From assembly GCA_016699465.1 (NCBI GenBank), contig CP064977.1:333668-397667 (forward strand): a stretch of DNA of 64,000 nucleotides. The letters run 5' to 3'. Positions 8,735 to 57,345 of this stretch are shown in pieces; position 1 is the stretch's first letter; every line of letters starts with the position of its first letter. Source of the DNA: Candidatus Campbellbacteria bacterium (GTDB lineage: Bacteria; Patescibacteriota; Minisyncoccia; Phycocordibacterales; EsbW-18). The position numbers and the translations under genes were made by a program. The notes below the pieces were generated by a model. That model was not told the origin of the DNA, ran no database searches, and was given only the letters and a program-made list of their open reading frames with translations.

Positions 8735-8810
8735 GCCCGGGTAGCTCAGATGGTAGAGCAACTCCATGGTAAGGAGTAGGTCGCCGGTTCAATTCCGGCC
8801 TCGGGCTCCA
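8735..8810 (+). tRNA. tRNA-Thr (anticodon GGT), CCA encoded
   Basis: Manual cloverleaf: acceptor GCCCGGG/CTCGGGC, D-arm GCTC-AGATGGTA-GAGC, anticodon arm ACTCC-ATGGTAA-GGAGT, T-arm GCCGG-TTCAATT-CCGGC. Confidence 0.8.
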
Positions 8811-8822
8811 GTCACCAAAACC

Positions 8823-8895
8823 GCCGAAGTAGCTCAGTTGGTAGAGCACCGCTTTCGTAAAGCGGGGGTCGCCGGTTCAATCCCGGCCTTCGGCT
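8823..8895 (+). tRNA. tRNA-Thr (anticodon CGT)
   Basis: Acceptor GCCGAAG/CTTCGGC, anticodon arm CCGCT-TTCGTAA-AGCGG, T-arm GCCGG-TTCAATC-CCGGC. Confidence 0.8.
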
Positions 8896-8950
8896 CATTA
8901 AAAACACGCCAGTTGGTGGGGATGGGGTGTATGAATACACTCCATCTTTC

Positions 8951-8987
8951 GTTGTAGAGGGGGTCGGTTCAATCCCGGCCTTCGGCT
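8951..8987 (+). pseudogene. Isolated tRNA 3'-half fragment (T-arm plus acceptor 3' strand), nearly identical to the 3' end of the adjacent tRNA-Thr(CGT)
   Basis: agggggtcggttcaatcccggccttcggctca repeats gggggtcgccggttcaatcccggccttcggctca of the tRNA at 8865-8897. No matching 5' acceptor strand was found in the preceding 60 nt. Confidence 0.5.
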
Positions 8988-9006
8988 CACGTAACAAGTT
9001 CTCTCT

Positions 9007-9642
9007 TTATTGTGTAGATACTGACGCTACTGGTTCCATTTGAACACCTTTTTCAAGTTGTCGATACACATACGTTAATACAAGGAGCGAAAGTGGAATA
9101 GACACGAGAAGACCAACAAAAGCAGCGAGAATTCCAGCGATATTAACTAAAATAAGAATACATAGAAAACCAAACAATTTCCACTTGTATCCCTTTGTCA
9201 ACCGCCAACTTTCTTTCAATGCTGCAACTGGCTGCATATTTTTATCGAGAATAAGAAACGGAACAAACATAAGTCCAATTTGAAGCATAATCCCAGGAAC
9301 AATAAGAAGTACCAACCCAATGAGAACACTTATTGCCGAGAGAATAACCGCCACAATGTAGTGCCATAAAGTCGTTCCCTTTTCGCCAAACAACATTTCA
9401 AAAGAAATACTGCCTCCAGCGTGCGCTGTCATGGCCATACGAATAAACCCAATGTACAACCACCACAACAATACAGCGGTCGCTAAACCGATAATAAAAT
9501 CGAAAAGACCTTTGTCATTACTAATTTTATCTGAAATAAATGACACAGCACCAATAAACGCTGTTGAACCAACAAATATCCAAACATTAGTAGAAAAAAT
9601 CTTCCACGCCGATCCAAATGCTTCCTTAATTGATAGTTTATT
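9007..9642 (-). CDS. Hypothetical multi-pass membrane protein
   Basis: Five to six hydrophobic helices and no recognisable motif. Start chosen at MNKLSIKEAF. Confidence 0.45.
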   Translation of the reverse strand, partial: NKLSIKEAFGSAWKIFSTNVWIFVGSTAFIGAVSFISDKISNDKGLFDFIIGLATAVLLWWLYIGFIRMAMTAHAGGSISFEMLFGEKGTTLWHYIVAVILSAISVLIGLVLLIVPGIMLQIGLMFVPFLILDKNMQPVAALKESWRLTKGYKWKLFGFLCILILVNIAGILAAFVGLLVSIPLSLLVLTYVYRQLEKGVQMEPVASVSTQ

Positions 9643-9929
9643 CATATGTGGCCAAGAACCTATTAACACTAGTATGTCTATAGTATACCGCCACGGTATT
9701 GAAGATTCAATAAATATACTGAAATTGCGGGTCAGGCTTTTTTATTGTAAAGTAGTGGTGTCTGCTGGTGTAATCAGGCCCAAAAGGCCTCTTGCATCGA
9801 CAGCGTTCGAACCACATAGTTAGGCGCCCCCCCATCTTCTCAGCTTCAAAAGAAAAAGAACAAGCTCTTTTTCTTTCTTGCTTCGAAGACTACGCCCCAA
9901 ACTACGTGTCGTCCTCATTTGTCGGTGTA

Positions 9930-10003
9930 GCTCAGGTAGTTAGAGCGAGGGACTCATAAGCCCTAGGTCGCAGGTGCAAGTCCTGCCACCGACACAGTTC
10001 GTT
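9930..10003 (+). tRNA. tRNA with CAT anticodon (Met elongator or Ile2/lysidine type); 1:72 is paired and 11:24 is C:G
   Basis: Acceptor GTCGGTG/CACCGAC, D-arm GCTC...GAGC, anticodon loop CTCATAA, T-arm GCAGG-TGCAAGT-CCTGC. Confidence 0.75.
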
Positions 10004-10193
10004 GATTTTAGGAGTATTTTTGGTATAGTATGACAGTCTGGGGTTGTAAGCAGCAGCTTACGAGTCCAGCATTCAGGGGAACATAAGCGCTCGAGTTTCC
10101 GTCCTCTCGGTATCAAGCAAAAATGAAAACAGGCTTTCCTTTTTGCCCTCACCTCGATGACTACACTCTCGCGTCTGCATACAACCCTCATTT

Positions 10194-10270
10194 GGAGTCG
10201 TAGCTCAACTGGTTAGAGCGCCTCCCTGTCACGGAGGAGGTTGCGGGTTCGAGTCCCGTCGATTCCGCCA
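10194..10270 (+). tRNA. tRNA-Asp (anticodon GTC), CCA encoded
   Basis: Acceptor GGAGTCG/CGATTCC (one G-U pair), anticodon arm CCTCC-CTGTCAC-GGAGG, T-arm GCGGG-TTCGAGT-CCCGT. Confidence 0.8.
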
Positions 10271-22467: not shown

Positions 22468-22543
22468 AGAAGTTGGGAGTTGGGGGTGAGAAGTTAGTGG
22501 TTAGTTTTGGTTTAGGTTTTGGAAATTTGGTTTTTTGGAAAAC
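22466..22543. repeat. 78-nt completely C-free (plus-strand) intergenic spacer of GTTGGGAG/GGTTAGT motifs; contains gaagttagtggttagtttt
   Basis: No cytosine from 22466 to 22543. The same 19-mer occurs in reverse complement at 27152-27176. Confidence 0.6.
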
Positions 22544-25068: not shown

Positions 25069-25184
25069 ATAGACAAAGTATATCCCAAATAACAGAAGTT
25101 GGGAATTGAGAGTTACGAGTTGGGAGTTTACACCCTGAATCCAAACACGTGTAGAGCATGTCCTGCAACCAAACGCGCAACAAC

Positions 25185-28204: not shown

Positions 28205-28274
28205 AAATAATAGAGTTTGGAAGTTGAGAGTTAGAGGTTAGTGATTAGAAATAGAATGTAGTGTGTAGAGTGTA
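28203..28274. repeat. 72-nt C-free (plus-strand) intergenic spacer of the same purine/T motif family
   Basis: aataatagagtttggaagttgagagttagaggttagtgattagaaatagaatgtagtgtgtagagtgtagaaatt contains no C. Confidence 0.55.
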
Positions 28275-30011: not shown

Positions 30012-32063
<2,052 letters not shown>

Positions 32064-32096
32064 CTACATGGAGGTCGAACGTCCCCAAAATCATCC

Positions 32097-35440: not shown

Positions 35441-36256
35441 CTACCCCAACAAAATCGCTATCAAATTAATCTGCCAGAAAAAGACGAGTGCAAAACCAAG
35501 AATAAGAAACGGTGCAAATGGAACTTCGCTCTTCATTGTAAAGCGTTCATGCGCGTCAGACAATGCACGAGCATGCGAATGTCGTAGATGCTCAGCACAT
35601 ACAAGTGCGATACTCACTACGGCACCAATCCAAAACGCAAAAAAGACTGCAGAAATACCTCCTGTTATTCCAAGAATCCAACCAATACCTAAAGAAAGTT
35701 TTGCATCACCAAATCCCATCCATCGTCCTCCTGAAACGAACCACAAAAATGCAAACGGAAATGCAATCAATGGACCAGCAAGCATGTCCATGAGTGTTGG
35801 CAGTTCAAGTGTGGGAATCCAGGTACTCGTTACAAAAAGTGCACCAAACGAAAGAGCGATGAACGCATATACAAACGCATTGGGAATTATTTTGTGGTGT
35901 ATGTCATACACAAGAATAACCACAAGAAGTGACCAGATGACAAACGAGGTGACAAGACCAACAATGTTTTCTACTCCAAACGTTGCGTACGACAGCACAA
36001 ACAGCACTGCGGTCAAAAGTTCAACAAGCGGATACTGCCATGAGATTTTTGAGCCACAGGTACGGCACTTCCCTTTTTGTATCAGAAAGCTGACAAGAGG
36101 AAGCAATTCAAACCACTGCAACTGCTCTCCACACTGTGCGCACCCCGAACGACCCGCAACAGTACGTCCTGTGTTGTGGCGGAGAATGACCACGTTGAGA
36201 AAACTTCCAACGATTGCACCGAGACAAAAAATAAAGAAGAACGAAAGAAATTCCAT
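35441..36256 (-). CDS. pilD: Prepilin peptidase (A24 family, PilD/ComC-like)
   Basis: N-terminal CxxC...CxxC zinc motif (CAQCGEQL...CRTCGSKI), a polytopic membrane core and catalytic Asp-containing segments (MGFGDAKL). Confidence 0.85.
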   Translation of the reverse strand: MEFLSFFFIFCLGAIVGSFLNVVILRHNTGRTVAGRSGCAQCGEQLQWFELLPLVSFLIQKGKCRTCGSKISWQYPLVELLTAVLFVLSYATFGVENIVGLVTSFVIWSLLVVILVYDIHHKIIPNAFVYAFIALSFGALFVTSTWIPTLELPTLMDMLAGPLIAFPFAFLWFVSGGRWMGFGDAKLSLGIGWILGITGGISAVFFAFWIGAVVSIALVCAEHLRHSHARALSDAHERFTMKSEVPFAPFLILGFALVFFWQINLIAILLG

Positions 36257-36374
36257 CCCGTTAGAGATAGGAAACGCGACGCGTTTCCGTAGTTATCACA
36301 CGTTTGTGCGCATGCGGATAAAAACTTTTTTGGGAAGATATGTTCATATTCATAACTGATACATCTCTAACGGG
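36257..36374. promoter_or_regulatory. Paired-palindrome element A immediately 5' of the pilD start
   Basis: A perfect 12-bp inverted repeat (cccgttagagat / atctctaacggg) spaced 94 bp flanks a perfect 9+1+9 palindrome GGAAACGCG-A-CGCGTTTCC. The proximal arm abuts the pilD start codon. A second copy lies at 38467-38584. Confidence 0.5.
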
Positions 36375-36429
36375 ACTCGTACGAATAGTATAGCATTTTA
36401 AATAAGAGGTCGGACCTCGAAACATAACA

Positions 36430-36465
36430 AAAACCCGCTTCAAGCGGGTTTTTGTTTGCAATAGA
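36430..36465 (-). terminator. Intrinsic terminator after pilA
   Basis: In the minus sense, aaaaacccgcttgaagcgggtttttgtt is a stem (aaacccgc/gcgggttt) followed by a T-run. Confidence 0.7.
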
Positions 36466-36478
36466 GTTTCGAGAGAGA

Positions 36479-36934
36479 TTACGGCTTGAGGTCGTACACT
36501 CCAGCGGCTGTTCCGTTGAAATCTGCATCACTGCCAGAACATGCCGTCCCTGCGGTTGCATTTGAATCACTGTTAAGTGCTGTATGAGTTGTTTGTTCAA
36601 GAAGCACTCCAACGTGATAAGAGTTACATGCTGTACCAGTTGTAGCAAGTCCTGCGTATTGGTATCCAGCAGGTGATCCAGCAGGAGCAACTGGCCATGA
36701 AGGCATGTATGTGGTTACCAATGAAGACGTGGCTGCCGGATATAGACCAGCGTGTGAATCTGCATAGAGTTCAAGTGCCAACTGAATCTGTTTAATATCT
36801 GAGATACGCTTTGCATCACGTGCCTTTTCACGTGCACTATTAAGAGATGCCAAAACAACTGATGAGAGGATGCCGATGATTGCAATCACGACAAGCAACT
36901 CGATGAGGGTAAAACCTCGTGTGAATTTCTTCAT
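36479..36934 (-). CDS. pilA: Major type IV pilin
   Basis: MKKFTRG|[16 protein letters not shown] is a canonical class III signal with a 7-aa leader, G-1, F+1 and E+5. The 151-aa protein has Cys residues near the C-terminus. Confidence 0.8.
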
Positions 36935-37027
36935 ATTTTTTGCGAGTTAATAAATAAACGCTTGGTTAATAAAGCTCTTTTATTATAGGCTTTATTTTGG
37001 AAAGCTGAAACCCGACTGTGGATAACC

Positions 37028-37086
37028 GTAAAGTAATGAAGATTGGTGGTTGGGAGTGAGGGGTTGGTGATTAGAGTTGGTTTAGA
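37028..37086. repeat. 59-nt C-free (plus-strand) intergenic spacer of the same motif family
   Basis: gtaaagtaatgaagattggtggttgggagtgaggggttggtgattagagttggtttagaaagagg. Confidence 0.5.
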
Positions 37087-37160
37087 AAGAGGTCCGACCT
37101 CCAAGAAGGATGTCGGACCTCTAAAACACCGGATTTCTGCTTAGAAGAAATCCGGTGTTG
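37081..37160 (-). terminator. Two tandem strong hairpins downstream of pilC
   Basis: agaggtccgacctcc-aagaa-ggatgtcggacctct has a 15-bp stem with 1 mismatch. caccggatttct-gcttag-aagaaatccggtg has a 12-bp stem, followed by a T-run in the minus sense. Confidence 0.6.
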
Positions 37161-37186
37161 GATATATTTGATATTGAATTCCCCTC

Positions 37187-38392
37187 CTACATTCCCGCTG
37201 AAATATTGTAAATAGGGATAAGAACTGACGCCAAAAGCGTACCAACTCCAAGTCCCAAAAGCACAATCATGGCTGGTTCGATGAGATCCACAAGTGTATC
37301 AACGGCATTCTTTACCTCTCGTTCATAGAAGTGTGCCAACGTCTTGAGAATGCCCGCCAACTCCCCCGTCTCCTCACCAATACGAATCATTTGTGTCATG
37401 ATGTTTGGAATAAGCTCACTTCCTGACATTGCATCCGCAACGCTCGAACCACCTCGTACACTTTCAACCGCTTCCTTCAACAAATTTTCATACAATGAGT
37501 TACCTACAACCACCGAACTAATCTCAAGTCCCCTGAGCATGGGAATACCCGATGAGAGCATTGTGTTCATGTTGTCAGCAATACGCGAAAGGTAGAGTTT
37601 ACGATACAACGTACCAATATACGGCACAGAAATCTTTACTCTTGAAAGTGCAATATCTCCTGCTGGCGTATTCATGTATCTCCACAACCATACGCCACCA
37701 AGTGCAAGGAGAATGACAAAAAAGATACCGTAATTCACCATAAACGAACTAATTCCAATAACCACCTTTGTGTATGCTGGTATTGCTTGTCCACTATCCT
37801 CAAGAATAGTTGAGAGTTTTGGAATAACCGTCGTAAACATGAGCGCCATAACGACGAGGAAGACCGAGATAACAAACGCAGGGTAAATGAGCGCATTTCG
37901 AGCCTTGGACGTTACTTCATACATACGATCAAGATAATCCGCGAGATACAAAAATGTTTGATCTAACTTTCCCGACTCCTCACCCGCACGAACCATGTTC
38001 ACGTAAAAAAGCGAAAAGATTTTTGGATGTTTTTCAAGTGCTTTTGAAATAGCACTTCCTCCCTGTAAATCATTTGATACTTCAAGGAGTGCGTACCGAA
38101 GTGCAGGCTTCTCTGTTTCTTCGGCAAGCAACCGAAACACACGAAGTGCAGACACTTGTGCTTCAAAAAGTGTTGCTACCTGTCGAGACAAAATAACGAG
38201 GTCTTTGTTGGAAACTCCTCCTCCAAAGGTAAATGATTTTCCGAGCGCGCCCTCTTCTTTAACCGCTTTAATTGACGAAATAACCAATCCACGCTGTTGC
38301 AACGACCGAATCGCAATATCATCATTGATAGCGTCTATTGTTCCACTTTTTTCGTTTCCGTCTGTATCTAATGCTTTGTAAGAAAAAATCAT
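37187..38392 (-). CDS. pilC: Type IV pilus assembly platform protein PilC (GspF family)
   Basis: Duplicated GspF domains, three TM segments and 401 aa. Confidence 0.85.
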   Translation of the reverse strand: MIFSYKALDTDGNEKSGTIDAINDDIAIRSLQQRGLVISSIKAVKEEGALGKSFTFGGGVSNKDLVILSRQVATLFEAQVSALRVFRLLAEETEKPALRYALLEVSNDLQGGSAISKALEKHPKIFSLFYVNMVRAGEESGKLDQTFLYLADYLDRMYEVTSKARNALIYPAFVISVFLVVMALMFTTVIPKLSTILEDSGQAIPAYTKVVIGISSFMVNYGIFFVILLALGGVWLWRYMNTPAGDIALSRVKISVPYIGTLYRKLYLSRIADNMNTMLSSGIPMLRGLEISSVVVGNSLYENLLKEAVESVRGGSSVADAMSGSELIPNIMTQMIRIGEETGELAGILKTLAHFYEREVKNAVDTLVDLIEPAMIVLLGLGVGTLLASVLIPIYNISAGM

Positions 38393-38397
38393 AAAAA

Positions 38398-38466
38398 TTA
38401 TCCACCAATTTTAAGAAGTGCCAGTAGTATCACAACACCAATGCCAATGTACAAAATTACTTTCAT
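38398..38466 (-). CDS. Candidate 22-codon hydrophobic micro-ORF (MKVILYIGIGVVILLALLKIGG) that ends 5 nt before the pilC start
   Basis: Its ATG is abutted by the inverted-repeat arm of element B, in the same way that the pilD ATG is abutted by the arm of element A. The stop codon is TAA. Confidence 0.3.
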   Translation of the reverse strand: MKVILYIGIGVVILLALLKIGG

Positions 38467-38584
38467 CCCGTTAGAAACAGGAAACGTTTTTCGTTTCCGT
38501 AGTATTAGAAAGTTTTGTTAACATTTTGATCATCGTAAGCATAATACCATTATAGTTCGTCTTAACTGAGTCATTTCTAACGGG
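38467..38584. promoter_or_regulatory. Paired-palindrome element B between pilT and the micro-ORF/pilC
   Basis: A perfect 11-bp inverted repeat (cccgttagaaa / tttctaacggg) spaced 96 bp flanks the palindrome GGAAACG-TTTTT-CGTTTCC. The ends are conserved with element A and the centre has diverged. Confidence 0.5.
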
Positions 38585-38591
38585 ATTCATA

Positions 38592-39665
38592 CTAAATGAG
38601 TCTCTCGAGCACTGCAGGATTAAGCGAATGAATGCGTGCCGTCTCAACAGTAATATCCCCTCGACGCACCAACTCTGCAAGCGAACGATTCATGTCTATC
38701 ATGCCGTATTCAGAACCTGTTTCAATCACGGTATCTATTTCATGTGTTCGTGCTTCACGAATAAGATTTGCTGTTGCCTTTGTGTTAATGAGTAACTCGT
38801 ACGCAGGAACCAATCCACCCGATACTCGTTGTACAAGACGTTGCGAGAAAATACCAATAAGAGAACCTGCGAGTTGTAGACGTACCTGACCTTGCTGTTC
38901 TGGAGGAAACGAGTCAATAATACGATCAATGGTTTGTGAAGCACTATTGGTGTGTAACGTCGAAAGCACCAGGTGTCCTGTCTCCGCTGCGGTAACCGCC
39001 GTTGCAATTGTTTCTTGTCCACGCATCTCACCCACCATGGCAACATCCACGTCCTGACGAAACATTTGTTTGAGTGCAATGTGAAAATCCTCCGTATCGA
39101 TATGAATCTCACGTTGATTAATCATGGACTTCTTTGGCTCAAAAATGTATTCGATAGGATCTTCAATCGTCACAATGTGGTCAGCACGTTCAGAGTTAAT
39201 AACATCAATCATTGCGGCAAGTGTAGTTGATTTTCCGTGCCCCACAGGTCCCACCACAAGAAAGAATCCTTGCTCGCGACGAGCAAAATCGGCAAGTATT
39301 GTTGGTAGAGCAAGTTCTTCAATAGTACGAATCTTTTTGGGAATAAAACGCAATACAATATCAATACCACCACGAGAAAACGAGCAGTTGCCACGAAAAC
39401 GAGCCGCCCCATCTCTAAAACTGTACGAAAAATCAATTTCTTTATTGCGCAAAAAAATCTCTTTATTTTCTGGCGTCAACAACGTCTCCATAAGACCGCG
39501 AACATCTTCCAACTGCAATACCTCTTTTTTTACCAACGGAATGAGCGTTCCAGACACACGAATAGTTGGATGATACCCTGTGGATAGGTGCAAATCTGAT
39601 GCACCCTCTTTCACGGTGATATCAAGTAAATCAAAAAGTTCTTGTGTGTATTCTTTTGATGACAT
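38592..39665 (-). CDS. pilT: Type IV pilus retraction ATPase PilT
   Basis: Walker A GPVGHGKSTT, Asp box, Walker B and His box, about 357 aa. It lacks the N-terminal domains of PilB. Confidence 0.85.
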   Translation of the reverse strand: MSSKEYTQELFDLLDITVKEGASDLHLSTGYHPTIRVSGTLIPLVKKEVLQLEDVRGLMETLLTPENKEIFLRNKEIDFSYSFRDGAARFRGNCSFSRGGIDIVLRFIPKKIRTIEELALPTILADFARREQGFFLVVGPVGHGKSTTLAAMIDVINSERADHIVTIEDPIEYIFEPKKSMINQREIHIDTEDFHIALKQMFRQDVDVAMVGEMRGQETIATAVTAAETGHLVLSTLHTNSASQTIDRIIDSFPPEQQGQVRLQLAGSLIGIFSQRLVQRVSGGLVPAYELLINTKATANLIREARTHEIDTVIETGSEYGMIDMNRSLAELVRRGDITVETARIHSLNPAVLERLI

Positions 39666-39674
39666 AGATGTGTA

Positions 39675-41474
39675 TTATTGTACCATGGGAGTATCTTGTT
39701 CTGGTGCATTTTCGTCAACAAACGAATCGTCCGCAGTATCATACAAACCTCCTAGTGTATTAACTTCTTCAAATGGTACCTCCCCACGCATACTTTTCAT
39801 GAGCGCATCTTCACGCATAGTAATCATACCGTGTGCACGAGCAGCGGCAAACAATTTTGGTTCAACGGGATCCGTCAAAATAATGTGCTCGAGTTCTTTG
39901 GTCATTTCAGCAACTTCAAAAACAGCAACACGCCCACGCGTTCCGTTTGGACAATCATCCGTTGATTGCAATCCATAAAATTCACTCGACGGCGGTATTT
40001 CTGAACGATACTCTTTTGGCAAATCAGCGAACTGTTTTTCAAACATTGATTTCAGGCCACCATCAATTGGCATTTTCTTTCCTGAGTCAGGACACAATTT
40101 ACGCACAAGACGTTGTGCCATTGTTAAGATGAGCGTTGGGCCAATAAGAAACGGATCAACACCCATATCGATAAGACGTGGAATAGCACCCATGGCATTG
40201 TTGGTGTGGATAGTTGAAAACACAAGGTGACCGGTGAGCGCCGCCTGCACTGCAAGTTGCGCTGTTTCTTTATCTCGAATTTCTCCCACCATGATGATGT
40301 CTGGATCTTGTCGAAGTGTTGTGCGAAGTCCTGACGCAAACGTGTATCCAATTTCTGGACGCACCTGCGATTGGTTCATTCCTGAAATACTGTATTCAAC
40401 TGGGTCTTCAAGAGAAAGAACGTTTTGTGTTTCTCGGTCAACTTCTTGCAACATCGAATAGAGCGTCGTTGATTTTCCTGAACCTGTTGGACCAGAAATA
40501 AGAATGAGTCCGTACGGTCGCGTAATCGCATTGCGAATTATTTTGAGATTACGCTCTGAAAAACCAATCTGCGAGAGGGGCAACACGCCTTTTTCTGAAT
40601 CGAGAATACGCAACACCACCTTTTCTCCATAGTACGCAGGAAATGTTGAGACACGGAAATCTATTTTACGACCTGCAATGCGTGCCGAAAATCGATTGTC
40701 TTGTGGCTTGCGCTTTTCATCAAGCTTCATGTTACAGAGAATTTTGATACGCGCGACGATTGCTTGATGTACCGAAAGCGGTAGTGTGAGGTTTGTCGAG
40801 AGCGCACCATCAACTCGAAAACGAACTTTTACACTTTCCGCGGTTGGCTCAATGTGAATATCTGACGCATCTCCTTCAATGGCATGCTTGAGAATCGTCG
40901 CCACAATTTTTGTTACAGGAGCATCTTCAACAAGTTGTGTTTCGCCGGTATCTTTATCTCGCTTGCCTGCTTCTTGTAATTTACGAGACAGCTCCTCCTC
41001 TTCTTCACTAAGCTCTGTCTCCAAATCAGTGAGTGCCTTGGTCACCTCCCCCGTCAATCCTTGATAATTTTTGAGAATATTTTCAAAATCAGTTTGCGAT
41101 ATCAAAAAAAGTTTATAGGGCATCGATATCTTTGTCGCAATAAATTGTAACGCATCACGCGCCTCAACGTTATCAGGATCAACAATACCAACTTCAAGTG
41201 CCCCATCTACAATAGCAAGTGGCGCAATTTGATAATGCTGAGCTGACTCCTCAGGAATATACCGCAGCGTTTCGAATGAAATTGGTGCTGTAATTGCTTT
41301 TGTAGGAAGACCAAAATACACACCCTTTGCCTGAAGAATTTCTTCTGACAGTACGCCATGGGCACGCGCAATATCCTCAACACTTTTTCCTGTTGTTTGT
41401 GCCTCTTTTTCAAAAGCACCTACAGACGATTCGTCAATAACACCTTTTTGTGCAAGTTCATTTAAAAAAGACAT
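39675..41474 (-). CDS. pilB: Type IV pilus assembly ATPase PilB (GspE family)
   Basis: N-terminal GspII-like domains, Walker A GPTGSGKSTT and the tetracysteine motif (CPDSGKK...CPNGTRG), 599 aa. Confidence 0.9.
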   Translation of the reverse strand: MSFLNELAQKGVIDESSVGAFEKEAQTTGKSVEDIARAHGVLSEEILQAKGVYFGLPTKAITAPISFETLRYIPEESAQHYQIAPLAIVDGALEVGIVDPDNVEARDALQFIATKISMPYKLFLISQTDFENILKNYQGLTGEVTKALTDLETELSEEEEELSRKLQEAGKRDKDTGETQLVEDAPVTKIVATILKHAIEGDASDIHIEPTAESVKVRFRVDGALSTNLTLPLSVHQAIVARIKILCNMKLDEKRKPQDNRFSARIAGRKIDFRVSTFPAYYGEKVVLRILDSEKGVLPLSQIGFSERNLKIIRNAITRPYGLILISGPTGSGKSTTLYSMLQEVDRETQNVLSLEDPVEYSISGMNQSQVRPEIGYTFASGLRTTLRQDPDIIMVGEIRDKETAQLAVQAALTGHLVFSTIHTNNAMGAIPRLIDMGVDPFLIGPTLILTMAQRLVRKLCPDSGKKMPIDGGLKSMFEKQFADLPKEYRSEIPPSSEFYGLQSTDDCPNGTRGRVAVFEVAEMTKELEHIILTDPVEPKLFAAARAHGMITMREDALMKSMRGEVPFEEVNTLGGLYDTADDSFVDENAPEQDTPMVQ

Positions 41475-43118: not shown

Positions 43119-43192
43119 AATATAGTAGAGGTTGTGAGTTAGGAGCGAGAGATTGGTGATTGGTTTGAGAGATTTGGAAGATATAAACACAC
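43119..43192. repeat. Near C-free (plus-strand) intergenic spacer of the same motif family, between pilM and pilN
   Basis: atatagtagaggttgtgagttaggagcgagagattggtgattggtttgagagatttggaag has a single C. Confidence 0.45.
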
Positions 43193-55732: not shown

Positions 55733-56047
55733 TTAGATGTCATCACGGATGATGATTGATAATTGTTTGAACCCGGTCTGAATTTTTGCATCAGGGAACG
55801 TCACCTCGACCTCACCGAGATACGTTCCGACCGTGTTCGTGTCGGAGGCCGTCCAGTTGTATCGGCATTTTCCTTTAGTTGCGTCAGTGATAACGCATGC
55901 CACGCCGTTAATCTTTACCGATCCAGTGGAGGAGTCCTTCATGTAGAACTTCACCGTGCATCCGGTTAAATCCACCGGCGCACCGTCTTGTGTCAGACTG
56001 AATTCCAGTGGAGGACGGGTGTCATTTTGTACGATTTTGATGCTCAT
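55733..56047 (-). CDS. Small all-beta (Ig-like) phage structural protein
   Basis: IVQNDTRPPLEFSLTQDGAPVDLTGCTVKFYMK resembles the N-terminal Ig-like domains of phage baseplate/receptor-binding proteins. Confidence 0.3.
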   Translation of the reverse strand: MSIKIVQNDTRPPLEFSLTQDGAPVDLTGCTVKFYMKDSSTGSVKINGVACVITDATKGKCRYNWTASDTNTVGTYLGEVEVTFPDAKIQTGFKQLSIIIRDDI

Positions 56048-57345
56048 AGGTTTATGTCTTGATTATTGCCCGGAAGAGTCACATCGGCCTTGGCGTTTTG
56101 AAGCTGTTGATCTTGTCGGGCAGTCTTGACCTCAATACTGCTTTTAGATGTTGTAAGACCGAACGTTTCTCTGGCCGAGAGCATCAGCACCGATACTTTC
56201 GCCGACAGGAATTCGATTGCGATCTTTAGTCCGGGAGGAATTTTCAGGATGTCCCACACGTACTTCCACGTCCTCGATACCAATCCTCGAATGTCGAGGA
56301 GGTATGTCCATGCTTTTCCGATTCCGAGCAGGATATCGAGTCGATACGTCCAGACTTTTGCAATGTGGCTTAGGATGTCGAATGCGTAAGTGATCGACTT
56401 TGAGACAAAGCTCGTGATATCCCATAGGTAGCTGGTTACTCTTGATGCGAGTGTCCGGACGTCCCATCTGTAAGTCAGCACTGTTGCTATAAGTCCTCTG
56501 ATATCGAACAGGTATGTCGATACTCTGGTCGCAAGACTTCTCATGTCGAGGAGGTACGTCATCTGCTTTACTGCACTCATCAGCACATTGAACACATACT
56601 CAGTGCTTTTGCTTACTGTGCCGGCCATGTCGAAGAGGTACTGCACGGCCTTGGTCGCAAGGTTTCGGATATCGATCACGTATGTCCACGTCTTACTGAT
56701 TAGGTTTCGGATATCTAGTAGGTACGCAGTCGACTTTTCGGCGAGATTTCTCAGGTCGAGTCGGTACGTCATGATCTTTGCGACCACGTCACCAATGTCG
56801 ATCAAGTAGGATGTGAGCTTTGTCGCAAGGTTTCTTATATCTAGCCGGTAGATTGTTTCTCTGGTGGCCGACAGGAACGAATCAAACACATAAGTTATCG
56901 TCTGGCCGATCGTGATCAGGATGTCACTCAGATACGTCGTGCTTTTAGTCGCCAGATTTCTCACATCGAGCTTGTACGTCATTGTCATGATCGCACCTCC
57001 GATAATGTCGATCAGATATGTGATTTGCTTTGCGATGAGTTGCAGTCCGTCCCAGAGGTATGTGGATGTCTTGTCGATCAGGCTTCGCATGTCGAAGACA
57101 TACGTCAGGGCTTTTTCAGCAAGAGCGTACACGTCCATGAGATACGTTTCTATTTTCCCAGCGAGATTTCGGATATCGGTCAGGTACGTTCGCACAGCTT
57201 CCACCGTTATCATCTGGTCGAAGACATACGTGATTGGTTTTGCTACCAATCCGAACGCATCGAGCACATAGTTCATCACCTTACTCACGACTGAAGAGCC
57301 GGTGTCATTGAGTCTTGCACTGTTGAATTGGTAGGAGTTGAACAT
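56044..57345 (-). CDS. Fibrous repeat protein: about 26 tandem copies of a 14-residue motif T-Y-[LV]-x-D-[IML]-R-x-L-A-x-K-x-x (likely a tail-fibre shaft)
   Basis: Read directly from the translation: TYLLDIRNLATKAV, TYRLDLRNLAEKST, TYVIDIRNLATKAV, TYLLDMRSLATRVS, TYLFDIRGLIATVL and further copies. The hydrophobic residues at repeat positions 2/6/9/13 give a 4-3-4-3 heptad spacing. The DNA shows a diverged 42-bp periodicity. Confidence 0.6.
   Translation of the reverse strand: MFNSYQFNSARLNDTGSSVVSKVMNYVLDAFGLVAKPITYVFDQMITVEAVRTYLTDIRNLAGKIETYLMDVYALAEKALTYVFDMRSLIDKTSTYLWDGLQLIAKQITYLIDIIGGAIMTMTYKLDVRNLATKSTTYLSDILITIGQTITYVFDSFLSATRETIYRLDIRNLATKLTSYLIDIGDVVAKIMTYRLDLRNLAEKSTAYLLDIRNLISKTWTYVIDIRNLATKAVQYLFDMAGTVSKSTEYVFNVLMSAVKQMTYLLDMRSLATRVSTYLFDIRGLIATVLTYRWDVRTLASRVTSYLWDITSFVSKSITYAFDILSHIAKVWTYRLDILLGIGKAWTYLLDIRGLVSRTWKYVWDILKIPPGLKIAIEFLSAKVSVLMLSARETFGLTTSKSSIEVKTARQDQQLQNAKADVTLPGNNQDINL

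Follow-up and report, generated by a model that had tools for sequence, protein, structure and literature searches.

Two probable insertions of a miniature inverted-repeat mobile element at start codons in the type IV pilus cluster of a Candidatus Campbellbacteria genome

Introduction

Correia elements (NEMIS) of Neisseria are MITEs (transposable elements of the miniature inverted-repeat type) of approximately 100–155 bp, which carry terminal inverted repeats and occur in many copies near gene starts. They are transcribed together with the downstream gene, and in the RNA their inverted repeats form a hairpin, cleaved by RNase III, through which expression is altered; they generate a TA duplication, have 26-bp repeats, contain a promoter and integration host factor (IHF) sites, and show no link to start codons. 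Rickettsia palindromic elements (RPEs) are small selfish repeats of compact, reduced genomes that spare essential genes; they insert within coding sequences, in frame, and are translated along with the rest of the protein. In the Bacillus cereus group, bcr1 is a mobile repeat of approximately 155 bp with a 5-bp TTTAT duplication and a stable predicted RNA fold, for which we know of no transposase. Here, we describe two copies of a 118-bp element (copy A, positions 36257–36374, and copy B, 38467–38584) located in the type IV pilus gene cluster of a Candidatus Campbellbacteria genome (Patescibacteria; candidate phyla radiation, CPR). Both lie on the minus strand of a 64-kb stretch of contig CP064977.1 (assembly GCA_016699465.1, positions 333,668 to 397,667), referred to below as the window. 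They most probably represent a non-autonomous, MITE-like mobile element that inserted twice independently, and not a control module specific for pilus genes.

The pilus location of the two copies looks incidental, and the family to which they belong appears to be an undescribed MITE variant that homes to start codons and rebuilds them; a literature search yielded no description of the element. Closest in function are the Correia elements, with their co-transcribed inverted-repeat hairpins near gene starts, and the likeness is functional only: unlike them, the present family has an ATGRA duplication, 12–13-bp repeats, a 0-nt spacing to the open reading frame (ORF) and a nearly fixed orientation. 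RPEs are closest in evolutionary strategy, being selfish repeats that persist in compact genomes and do not destroy genes. Unlike RPEs, the present element lies outside the ORF, at its first codon, and every copy sharing the reading frame of the gene (15/15) carries stop codons. In contrast to bcr1, which is found in one species group and shows no start-codon association, the family spans CPR classes and Omnitrophota and has another target and sequence. REPIN/RAYT and IS200/IS605-derived elements are likewise short, hairpin-containing and non-autonomous, and are mobilised in trans; they have neither terminal inverted repeats nor a target duplication, whereas the present family has both. Moreover, IS200/IS605-derived elements have subterminal hairpins at both ends, whereas the main subfamily described here has one at one end only, beside the gene-proximal arm.

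Results

Structure of the two copies

An earlier note on this DNA, made from the sequence alone, described two elements of approximately 118 bp, each with perfect terminal inverted repeats and with a paired GGAAACG/CGTTTCC palindrome near a proximal arm that abuts an ATG. Each part of this description proved accurate. The repeats are perfect over 12 bp in copy A and over 11 bp in copy B (CCCGTTAGAAA/TTTCTAACGGG), where the twelfth pair, read in the mRNA sense (minus strand), is a U-G wobble. The sequence CCCGTTAGA occurs exactly four times in the 64 kb, these being the four arms (approximately 0.5 occurrences expected from length alone), and the palindrome GGAAACG-N(1–7)-CGTTTCC occurs twice, at 36270–36288 and 38480–38498, compared to 0 in 100 shuffles. 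In copy A the palindrome extends to 9+1+9 (GGAAACGCG-A-CGCGTTTCC). In both copies the hairpin-side (proximal) arm adjoins the ATG without a spacer; this is the start codon of pilD in the case of A and, in the case of B, that of a 22-codon ORF (micro-ORF) ending 5 nt before pilC.

Copies A and B are approximately 76% identical, flanks included, and are not recent copies of each other. The alignment revealed ends that are far better conserved than the interior, which bears out the pattern seen in the earlier note; the constraint resembles that on transposon ends and not that on an operator. The fold analysis proposed in the same note showed that the sense strands of both copies fold far beyond shuffles (z = −5.8 and −3.7). 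No match to the element was found in Rfam 15 at the gathering threshold (window and 12 other loci), nor was there any Rfam match in the region 36100–38800 even at E-values up to 10. A consensus scan detected no gene-facing promoter inside either copy.

Occupied and empty sites in related genomes

Relatives were found through PilC, and the orthologous pilus loci of five contigs, L001 (95% PilC identity), L003 (90%), L102 (80%), L103 (78%) and L104 (77%), were compared with the window. Element A is absent from the orthologous pilD site in all of these relatives (5/5). The site of element B is occupied in L001 (B without A) and L102 (B site only), and empty in L003, L103 and L104, which have neither element. 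In the relatives lacking A, pilD starts at the same ATG (ATGGAATT), 6–8 nt after a TATACT/TATAAT box, which is a predicted leaderless-type arrangement. In those lacking B, the small ORF is found directly after pilT, and L103 has a clean empty site (TAAT followed by ATGAAG).

The element-free site of L003 (3191–3215; ATGAAGACTGTATGAAA) contains two ATGAA copies 6 nt apart, and L103 a single copy; the double ATGAA may be the excision footprint of an earlier element.

The orthologs of the micro-ORF are 43–47 aa long (L003 3204–3338; L102 3848–3991; L103 3865–3996; L104 3857–3997) and specify a conserved small hydrophobic protein between pilT and pilC (MKTLLYIGIGLVVLL...LPYLxIL...), which is truncated to 22 aa in the window and in L001. 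Since the small ORF exists in relatives without the element, it is not a leader peptide made by the element. Judged by this conservation, the micro-ORF is an independent, conserved gene for a predicted small membrane protein, which may be an uncharacterised small component of the pilus.

A family dispersed over unrelated loci

A pattern scan (hairpin plus proximal arm end), run once over 185,579 species-representative genomes, gave 93 stretches with 96 matches. Recognisable arms are present in 84 of these (perfect over 12 bp in 68), and four matches in unrelated phyla, without arms, are chance matches. The modal length of the element is 118 nt, with 75 of the 84 copies within 114–123 nt, and the terminal inverted repeats of the family comprise 12–13 bp, (T)CCCGTTAGAGAT. 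The hosts belong to many CPR lineages (Paceibacteria, Liptonbacteria, Yonathbacteria, Woykebacteria, metagenome-assembled genomes (MAGs) labelled Saccharibacteria) and also include several Omnitrophota MAGs. Most host genomes carry several copies (at least seven in one Liptonbacteria MAG).

The 69 ORFs that start at the adjoining ATG represent 102 Pfam families and have no shared functional theme. The downstream genes include topA, prfA/B, polA, ftsW, ftsZ, rplB (L2), rplD (L4), trmD and Mur ligase genes, the element being tolerated before essential, highly expressed genes; among the other genomes, a copy also precedes one T2SSF and one T2SSE gene.

A stretch of 34 nt (hairpin plus proximal arm) is identical across phyla, although the near-invariance of arm and hairpin arises partly by construction, because the scan pattern required the hairpin and the proximal-arm end. 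An arms-only search of the same loci revealed more copies, with other hairpins (GGAAAUG/CAUUUCC, GGAACCU/AGGUUCC, GGGAGCC/GGCUCCC) or with an extended arm helix replacing the hairpin, and therefore the hairpin is structurally conserved and not invariant. The top of the hairpin co-varies, while the length and sequence of the loop vary freely, and the arms co-vary by subfamily (AGAGAT/ATCTCT, AGAGGT/ACCTCT, AGAAGC/GCTTCT, AATAAT/ATTATT). Interior identity within a genome reaches 93% (median 62%), and between genomes its median of 51% is at background level.

Omnitrophota-type copies (L013, L018, L023, L059, L072 and others, including a few from CPR) have longer repeats, GTTYAC-CCCGTTAGAG...CTCTAACGGG-GTRAAC, and are placed 5–20 nt upstream of a Shine-Dalgarno-led ATG, not abutting it, which indicates that the family adapts to hosts with different initiation signals.

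Duplication of the start codon and orientation of the element

The typical flank reads ATGRA-T[element]ATGRA, e.g. ATGAAT[...]ATGAAA, ATGGAT[...]ATGGAx or ATGAGT[...]ATGAGx. A left ATG is present in 61 copies; of these, 60 have the same base on both sides at position 4 of the duplication (A/A 50, G/G 10; the exception is T/C) and 57 at position 5 (A/A 52, G/G 5; mixed in 4). The sixth left base is almost always T, regardless of the sixth base of the gene. The flank reads as either a 5-bp duplication with an element-borne T or a 4-bp duplication with 13-bp repeats (T...A). Where elements are in tandem, exactly one 6-nt hexamer lies between them. The element is shown to insert at start codons with duplication of the ATG and the next two bases, leaving the downstream ORF with an intact ATG immediately behind the arm.

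An ATG directly follows the hairpin-side arm in 65 of the 84 copies, and 63 of these ATGs open an ORF of at least 50 aa; in the flipped sense no copy in the genome set opens such an ORF (0/84). Start codons make up only 14 of the 83 non-genic ATGRR sites in the window, and hence the purging of intragenic insertions alone is insufficient to account for the enrichment at start codons. A flipped-junction scan of all JGI metagenome contigs revealed only four flipped copies, one of them before a typA-like GTPase gene, so the orientation is strongly biased and not absolute.

Discussion

Insertion of a mobile element

Five of the six defining MITE features are found in the family: small size (below approximately 300 bp), terminal inverted repeats, target duplication, dispersed copies and presence/absence polymorphism; the sixth would be an autonomous insertion sequence that has matching ends and provides the transposase. 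With regard to size, no internal ORFs occur other than upstream ORFs of 6–43 codons, which are not conserved, and there is no coding capacity for a transposase.

Four observations weigh against the mobile-element reading. The length of the duplication (4–6 nt) is variable, which is unusual for a transposase, and the ends are symmetric, yet the orientation is nearly fixed (none of the 84 genome copies is flipped). A covariance model (77 members, filters off) finds only copies A and B in the 64-kb window, both in the pilus cluster. Finally, in approximately 100 loci neither a transposase nor an autonomous partner sharing the element ends was found, and the long-range arm pairs there turned out to be neighbouring small elements. 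In the ISfinder table, elements of the IS1380 family have ends beginning with CC and generate 4–5-bp duplications, which makes this family a lead to a possible parent; no IS1380-like transposase flanked by the element ends was found in the approximately 100 loci.

A possible translational relay

The Shine-Dalgarno motif is absent upstream of the window genes (57 predicted gene starts), and many of these genes have a TATAAT-like −10 box 6–8 nt before the ATG, a distance that suggests leaderless mRNAs in the host. Other window genes have short A-rich upstream sequences, e.g. TAAACAC. A more far-reaching, tentative proposal, which we hold to be possible but doubtful, is that the family constitutes a start-codon-homing selfish element with its own translational relay, colonising even essential genes in the Shine-Dalgarno-less, leaderless-rich genomes of CPR bacteria and Omnitrophota.

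After insertion, copies A and B would probably be transcribed as part of the mRNA, and their arms would pair as a 12-bp helix, extended to 14 bp once the A and U of the real AUG pair with the last two bases of the left hexamer. The extended helix would block initiation at the real AUG, while the duplicated AUG would retain the native initiation context, which is either the 5′ terminus of a leaderless mRNA or the preceding gene's stop codon. A ribosome starting at the duplicated AUG would read a short upstream ORF (at least six codons, MNPVRD...) through the 5′ arm and thereby melt the helix. The stop codon of this ORF inside the element, often a UAA 4 nt before the real AUG or an overlapping UGA, would then lead to initiation or re-initiation. 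Such a relay would let the element sit before essential genes in a genome without Shine-Dalgarno sequences, and the terminal helix may have been co-opted as a genome-wide translational control point.

The frame of the left ATG is never closed before the end of the arm (minimum six codons); since the upstream ORF always spans the whole 5′ arm, a ribosome translating it would have to melt the helix. This frame is open as far as the arm TAA or an overlapping ATGA in 17 of 57 copies, compared to 1/114 for the other two frames and 4.5–6 expected from interior shuffles, although these statistics are inflated because copies within subfamilies are not independent. Copy B is of this fully open type (39 codons), stopping at a TAA 4 nt before the real ATG. 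Approximately one third of the family copies have a −10 box 6–8 nt before the left ATG, as in host genes.

Other observations speak against the relay. In 40 of the 57 copies the upstream ORF ends far before the real AUG. Copy A no longer has its left ATG (ACG instead), and its frame from the ACG, as read by eye, is still open as far as the proximal-arm TAA. In L001, an arm of the orthologous copy is decaying and the interior is approximately 75% identical, against 92–95% for the flanking coding sequence. Arm mismatches on the sense strand comprise 4 G-U and 7 A-C, i.e. there is no wobble bias, and RNA-level selection on the helix is therefore unsupported.

If the family is confirmed, it would define a new route by which selfish DNA persists in streamlined genomes, sitting on start codons while rebuilding them, including those of ribosomal-protein, cell-division and replication genes. 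The family would then be a natural, many-times-replicated experiment on translation start in CPR bacteria, apparently without Shine-Dalgarno sequences. It would also be a likely source of mis-annotation in CPR MAGs, giving rise to spurious ORFs of 30–40 codons, wrong starts and apparent conserved regulatory motifs, and the near-identical ends in CPR bacteria and Omnitrophota would mark gene flow or a shared mobilising enzyme. For the window, a tempting but wrong regulatory model of the type IV pilus genes would be removed.

Alternative explanations

Among the alternatives, the one that survives best, though it is unlikely, is a domesticated cis-regulatory RNA leader, i.e. a translational regulator kept by the host (e.g. 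a protein- or ligand-responsive helix over the start) with a large and diverse regulon. The strict 0-nt spacing to the AUG, the nearly fixed orientation, the strong sense-strand fold and the presence of the element before essential genes would all be expected of such a leader, and the same applies to the 34 nt identical across phyla (partly by construction of the scan) and to an enrichment at true starts that exceeds the prediction from purging of genic insertions alone. It is difficult to reconcile, however, with the differing presence and absence of the element among close relatives and the decay of the L001 copy. Moreover, the downstream genes lack a common functional theme, the helix has no wobble bias, flipped copies occur before genes, and no Rfam family was matched.

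Processing or self-cleavage of the RNA, in which a cut at the 3′ end of the element would regenerate a leaderless mRNA starting with the real AUG, is very unlikely. It would suit a host lineage with apparently leaderless, Shine-Dalgarno-less initiation, and the 0-nt spacing between arm and AUG is what a 5′-terminal AUG would require. The interiors, however, are unconserved and so offer no candidate catalytic core, no ribozyme family was matched at E-values up to 10, and flipped copies stand before apparently functional genes; in addition, we know of no nuclease that cuts bluntly at the base of a helix.

The reading preferred in the earlier note has become extremely unlikely. It holds that a pilus-specific operator/promoter, bound at its paired palindromes by a regulator, controls the pilD and pilC units together and that the micro-ORF is a leader peptide. 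What speaks for it is that both copies in the window abut start codons within the pilus cluster and that a T2SSF and a T2SSE gene elsewhere carry a copy. However, the same element precedes 102 unrelated Pfam families and is missing from orthologous pilus loci with the same gene order; it contains no gene-facing promoter consensus, and a hairpin with a co-varying top and a free loop points to a folded strand and not to a duplex operator. The leader-peptide role fails as well, relatives without the element having the conserved 43–47-aa small membrane protein gene at this position. A search of related genomes, named beforehand in the note as able to refute the operator, found many copies at unrelated loci. 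The alternative offered there, a miniature inverted-repeat mobile element, is supported by these dispersed copies, by the duplications and by the empty orthologous sites.

Least likely of all is an invertible promoter switch (inverton, fimS-like) for phase variation of the pilus genes: perfect inverted repeats do enclose a segment of approximately 95 bp upstream of pilus genes and a few flipped copies exist in metagenomes, but none of the 84 genome copies is flipped, there is no internal promoter, the element precedes housekeeping genes, and no recombinase was found among the called genes within approximately 9 kb in L001 or among the 10 window ORFs scanned in or beside the pilus cluster.

Several further identities of the element were considered and rejected. 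An internal promoter was excluded by the negative consensus scan, and the right arm is ruled out as a −10 box by its co-variation with the left one. The hairpin of copy B was flagged weakly as an intrinsic terminator, but the family sits inside operons of essential genes. In an integron attC site, which bounds mobile gene cassettes, the core sites have the order 5′-RYYYAAC...GTTRRRY-3′, the reverse of that observed (GTTAGA...TCTAAC on either strand), and the genes between the two copies are core pilus genes that are also syntenic in relatives without the elements. A phage origin was dismissed on finding 0 family matches in the viral contigs scanned, and a small-protein gene on finding the upstream-ORF peptides to be unconserved except for the parts encoded by arm and hairpin. 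Group I-like splicing (exon ending in U, element ending in G) is contradicted by the small size, the lack of a conserved core and the presence of 5- or 7-nt left flanks, which break the frame.

Genetic organization of the locus and other repeats

Pfam analysis identified the type IV pilus cluster, which holds both elements, on the minus strand, in the order pilB, pilT, element B, 22-codon ORF, pilC, pilin gene, terminator, element A, pilD. The coordinates are summarized in Table 1.

Table 1. Features of the two element copies and of the surrounding pilus gene cluster (positions in the window).
Feature	Position	Strand	Remarks
Element copy A (118 bp)	36257..36374	minus	separates the pilD promoter from the pilD start codon; covariance-model match 86 bits
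Copy A distal arm (5′ in mRNA sense), CCCGTTAGAGAT	36363..36374	minus	complementary to 36257-36268 over all 12 bp
Copy A proximal arm, ATCTCTAACGGG	36257..36268	minus	ends at −1 of the pilD ATG
Copy A subterminal hairpin (P3), GGAAACGCG-U-CGCGUUUCC	36270..36288	minus	
Putative decayed left start-codon duplication of copy A, ACGAGT	36375..36380	minus	family consensus ATGRAT
Element copy B (118 bp)	38467..38584	minus	between the pilT stop and the small-ORF start; covariance-model match 81 bits
Copy B distal arm, CCCGUUAGAAAU	38573..38584	minus	
Copy B proximal arm, GUUUCUAACGGG	38467..38478	minus	ends directly before the micro-ORF ATG (−1)
Copy B subterminal hairpin (P3), GGAAACG-AAAAA-CGUUUCC	38480..38498	minus	stem intact in the L001 orthologous copy
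Left copy of the duplicated start codon, ATGAAT	38585..38590	minus	right copy is the micro-ORF start, ATGAAA
Upstream ORF probably created by the insertion, 39 codons (MNPVRNDS...VSCF)	38471..38590	minus	from the duplicated ATG to the proximal-arm TAA
pilB	39675-41474	minus	Pfam
pilT-like ATPase (T2SSE)	38592..39665	minus	stop codon 1 nt before the duplicated ATG of copy B
22-codon micro-ORF	38398..38466	minus	probable target of the insertion, outside the element; ends 5 nt before pilC
pilC (T2SSF)	37187..38392	minus	Pfam; 100% identity to a Candidatus Campbellbacteria protein
Pilin gene	36479-36934	minus	Pfam
pilD (prepilin peptidase)	35441..36256	minus	Pfam A24_N_bact + Peptidase_A24; start codon adjoins copy A
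−10-like box TATACT of the pilD promoter	36387..36392	minus	outside element A

Another palindrome, GAGGTC(C/G)GACCTC, is present in the pilus cluster at 36406–36418, between the terminator and the promoter before pilD, and at 37089–37101 and 37109–37121, before the pilin gene (0.74 matches expected by chance). A related palindrome is located near 32055–32085, and the relatives have different palindromes at the same places. As a possible common operator or insulator of the pilus units, this sequence is a stronger candidate than the 118-bp element.

A repeat of approximately 35 nt, whose plus strand is rich in G/T and whose sense strand is rich in C/A, was found at 22468–22502, 25094–25128, 28212–28246, 37038–37072 and 43127–43161. 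It lies directly upstream of several ATGs, including that of the pilin gene (e.g. AACCACTAACTTCTCACCCCCAACTCCCAACTTCT-ATG), and may serve as a common 5′ leader or as a motif that enhances translation.

Within the ORF at 56044–57345 (minus strand, 433 aa), diverged repeats with a 42-nt (14-codon) periodicity are located at 56279–57186. In the tRNA gene cluster at 8735–10267, the 3′ end of a tRNA is present once more as a 25-nt copy (8965–8989, identical to 8873–8897), which may be a remnant of integration at a tRNA gene.

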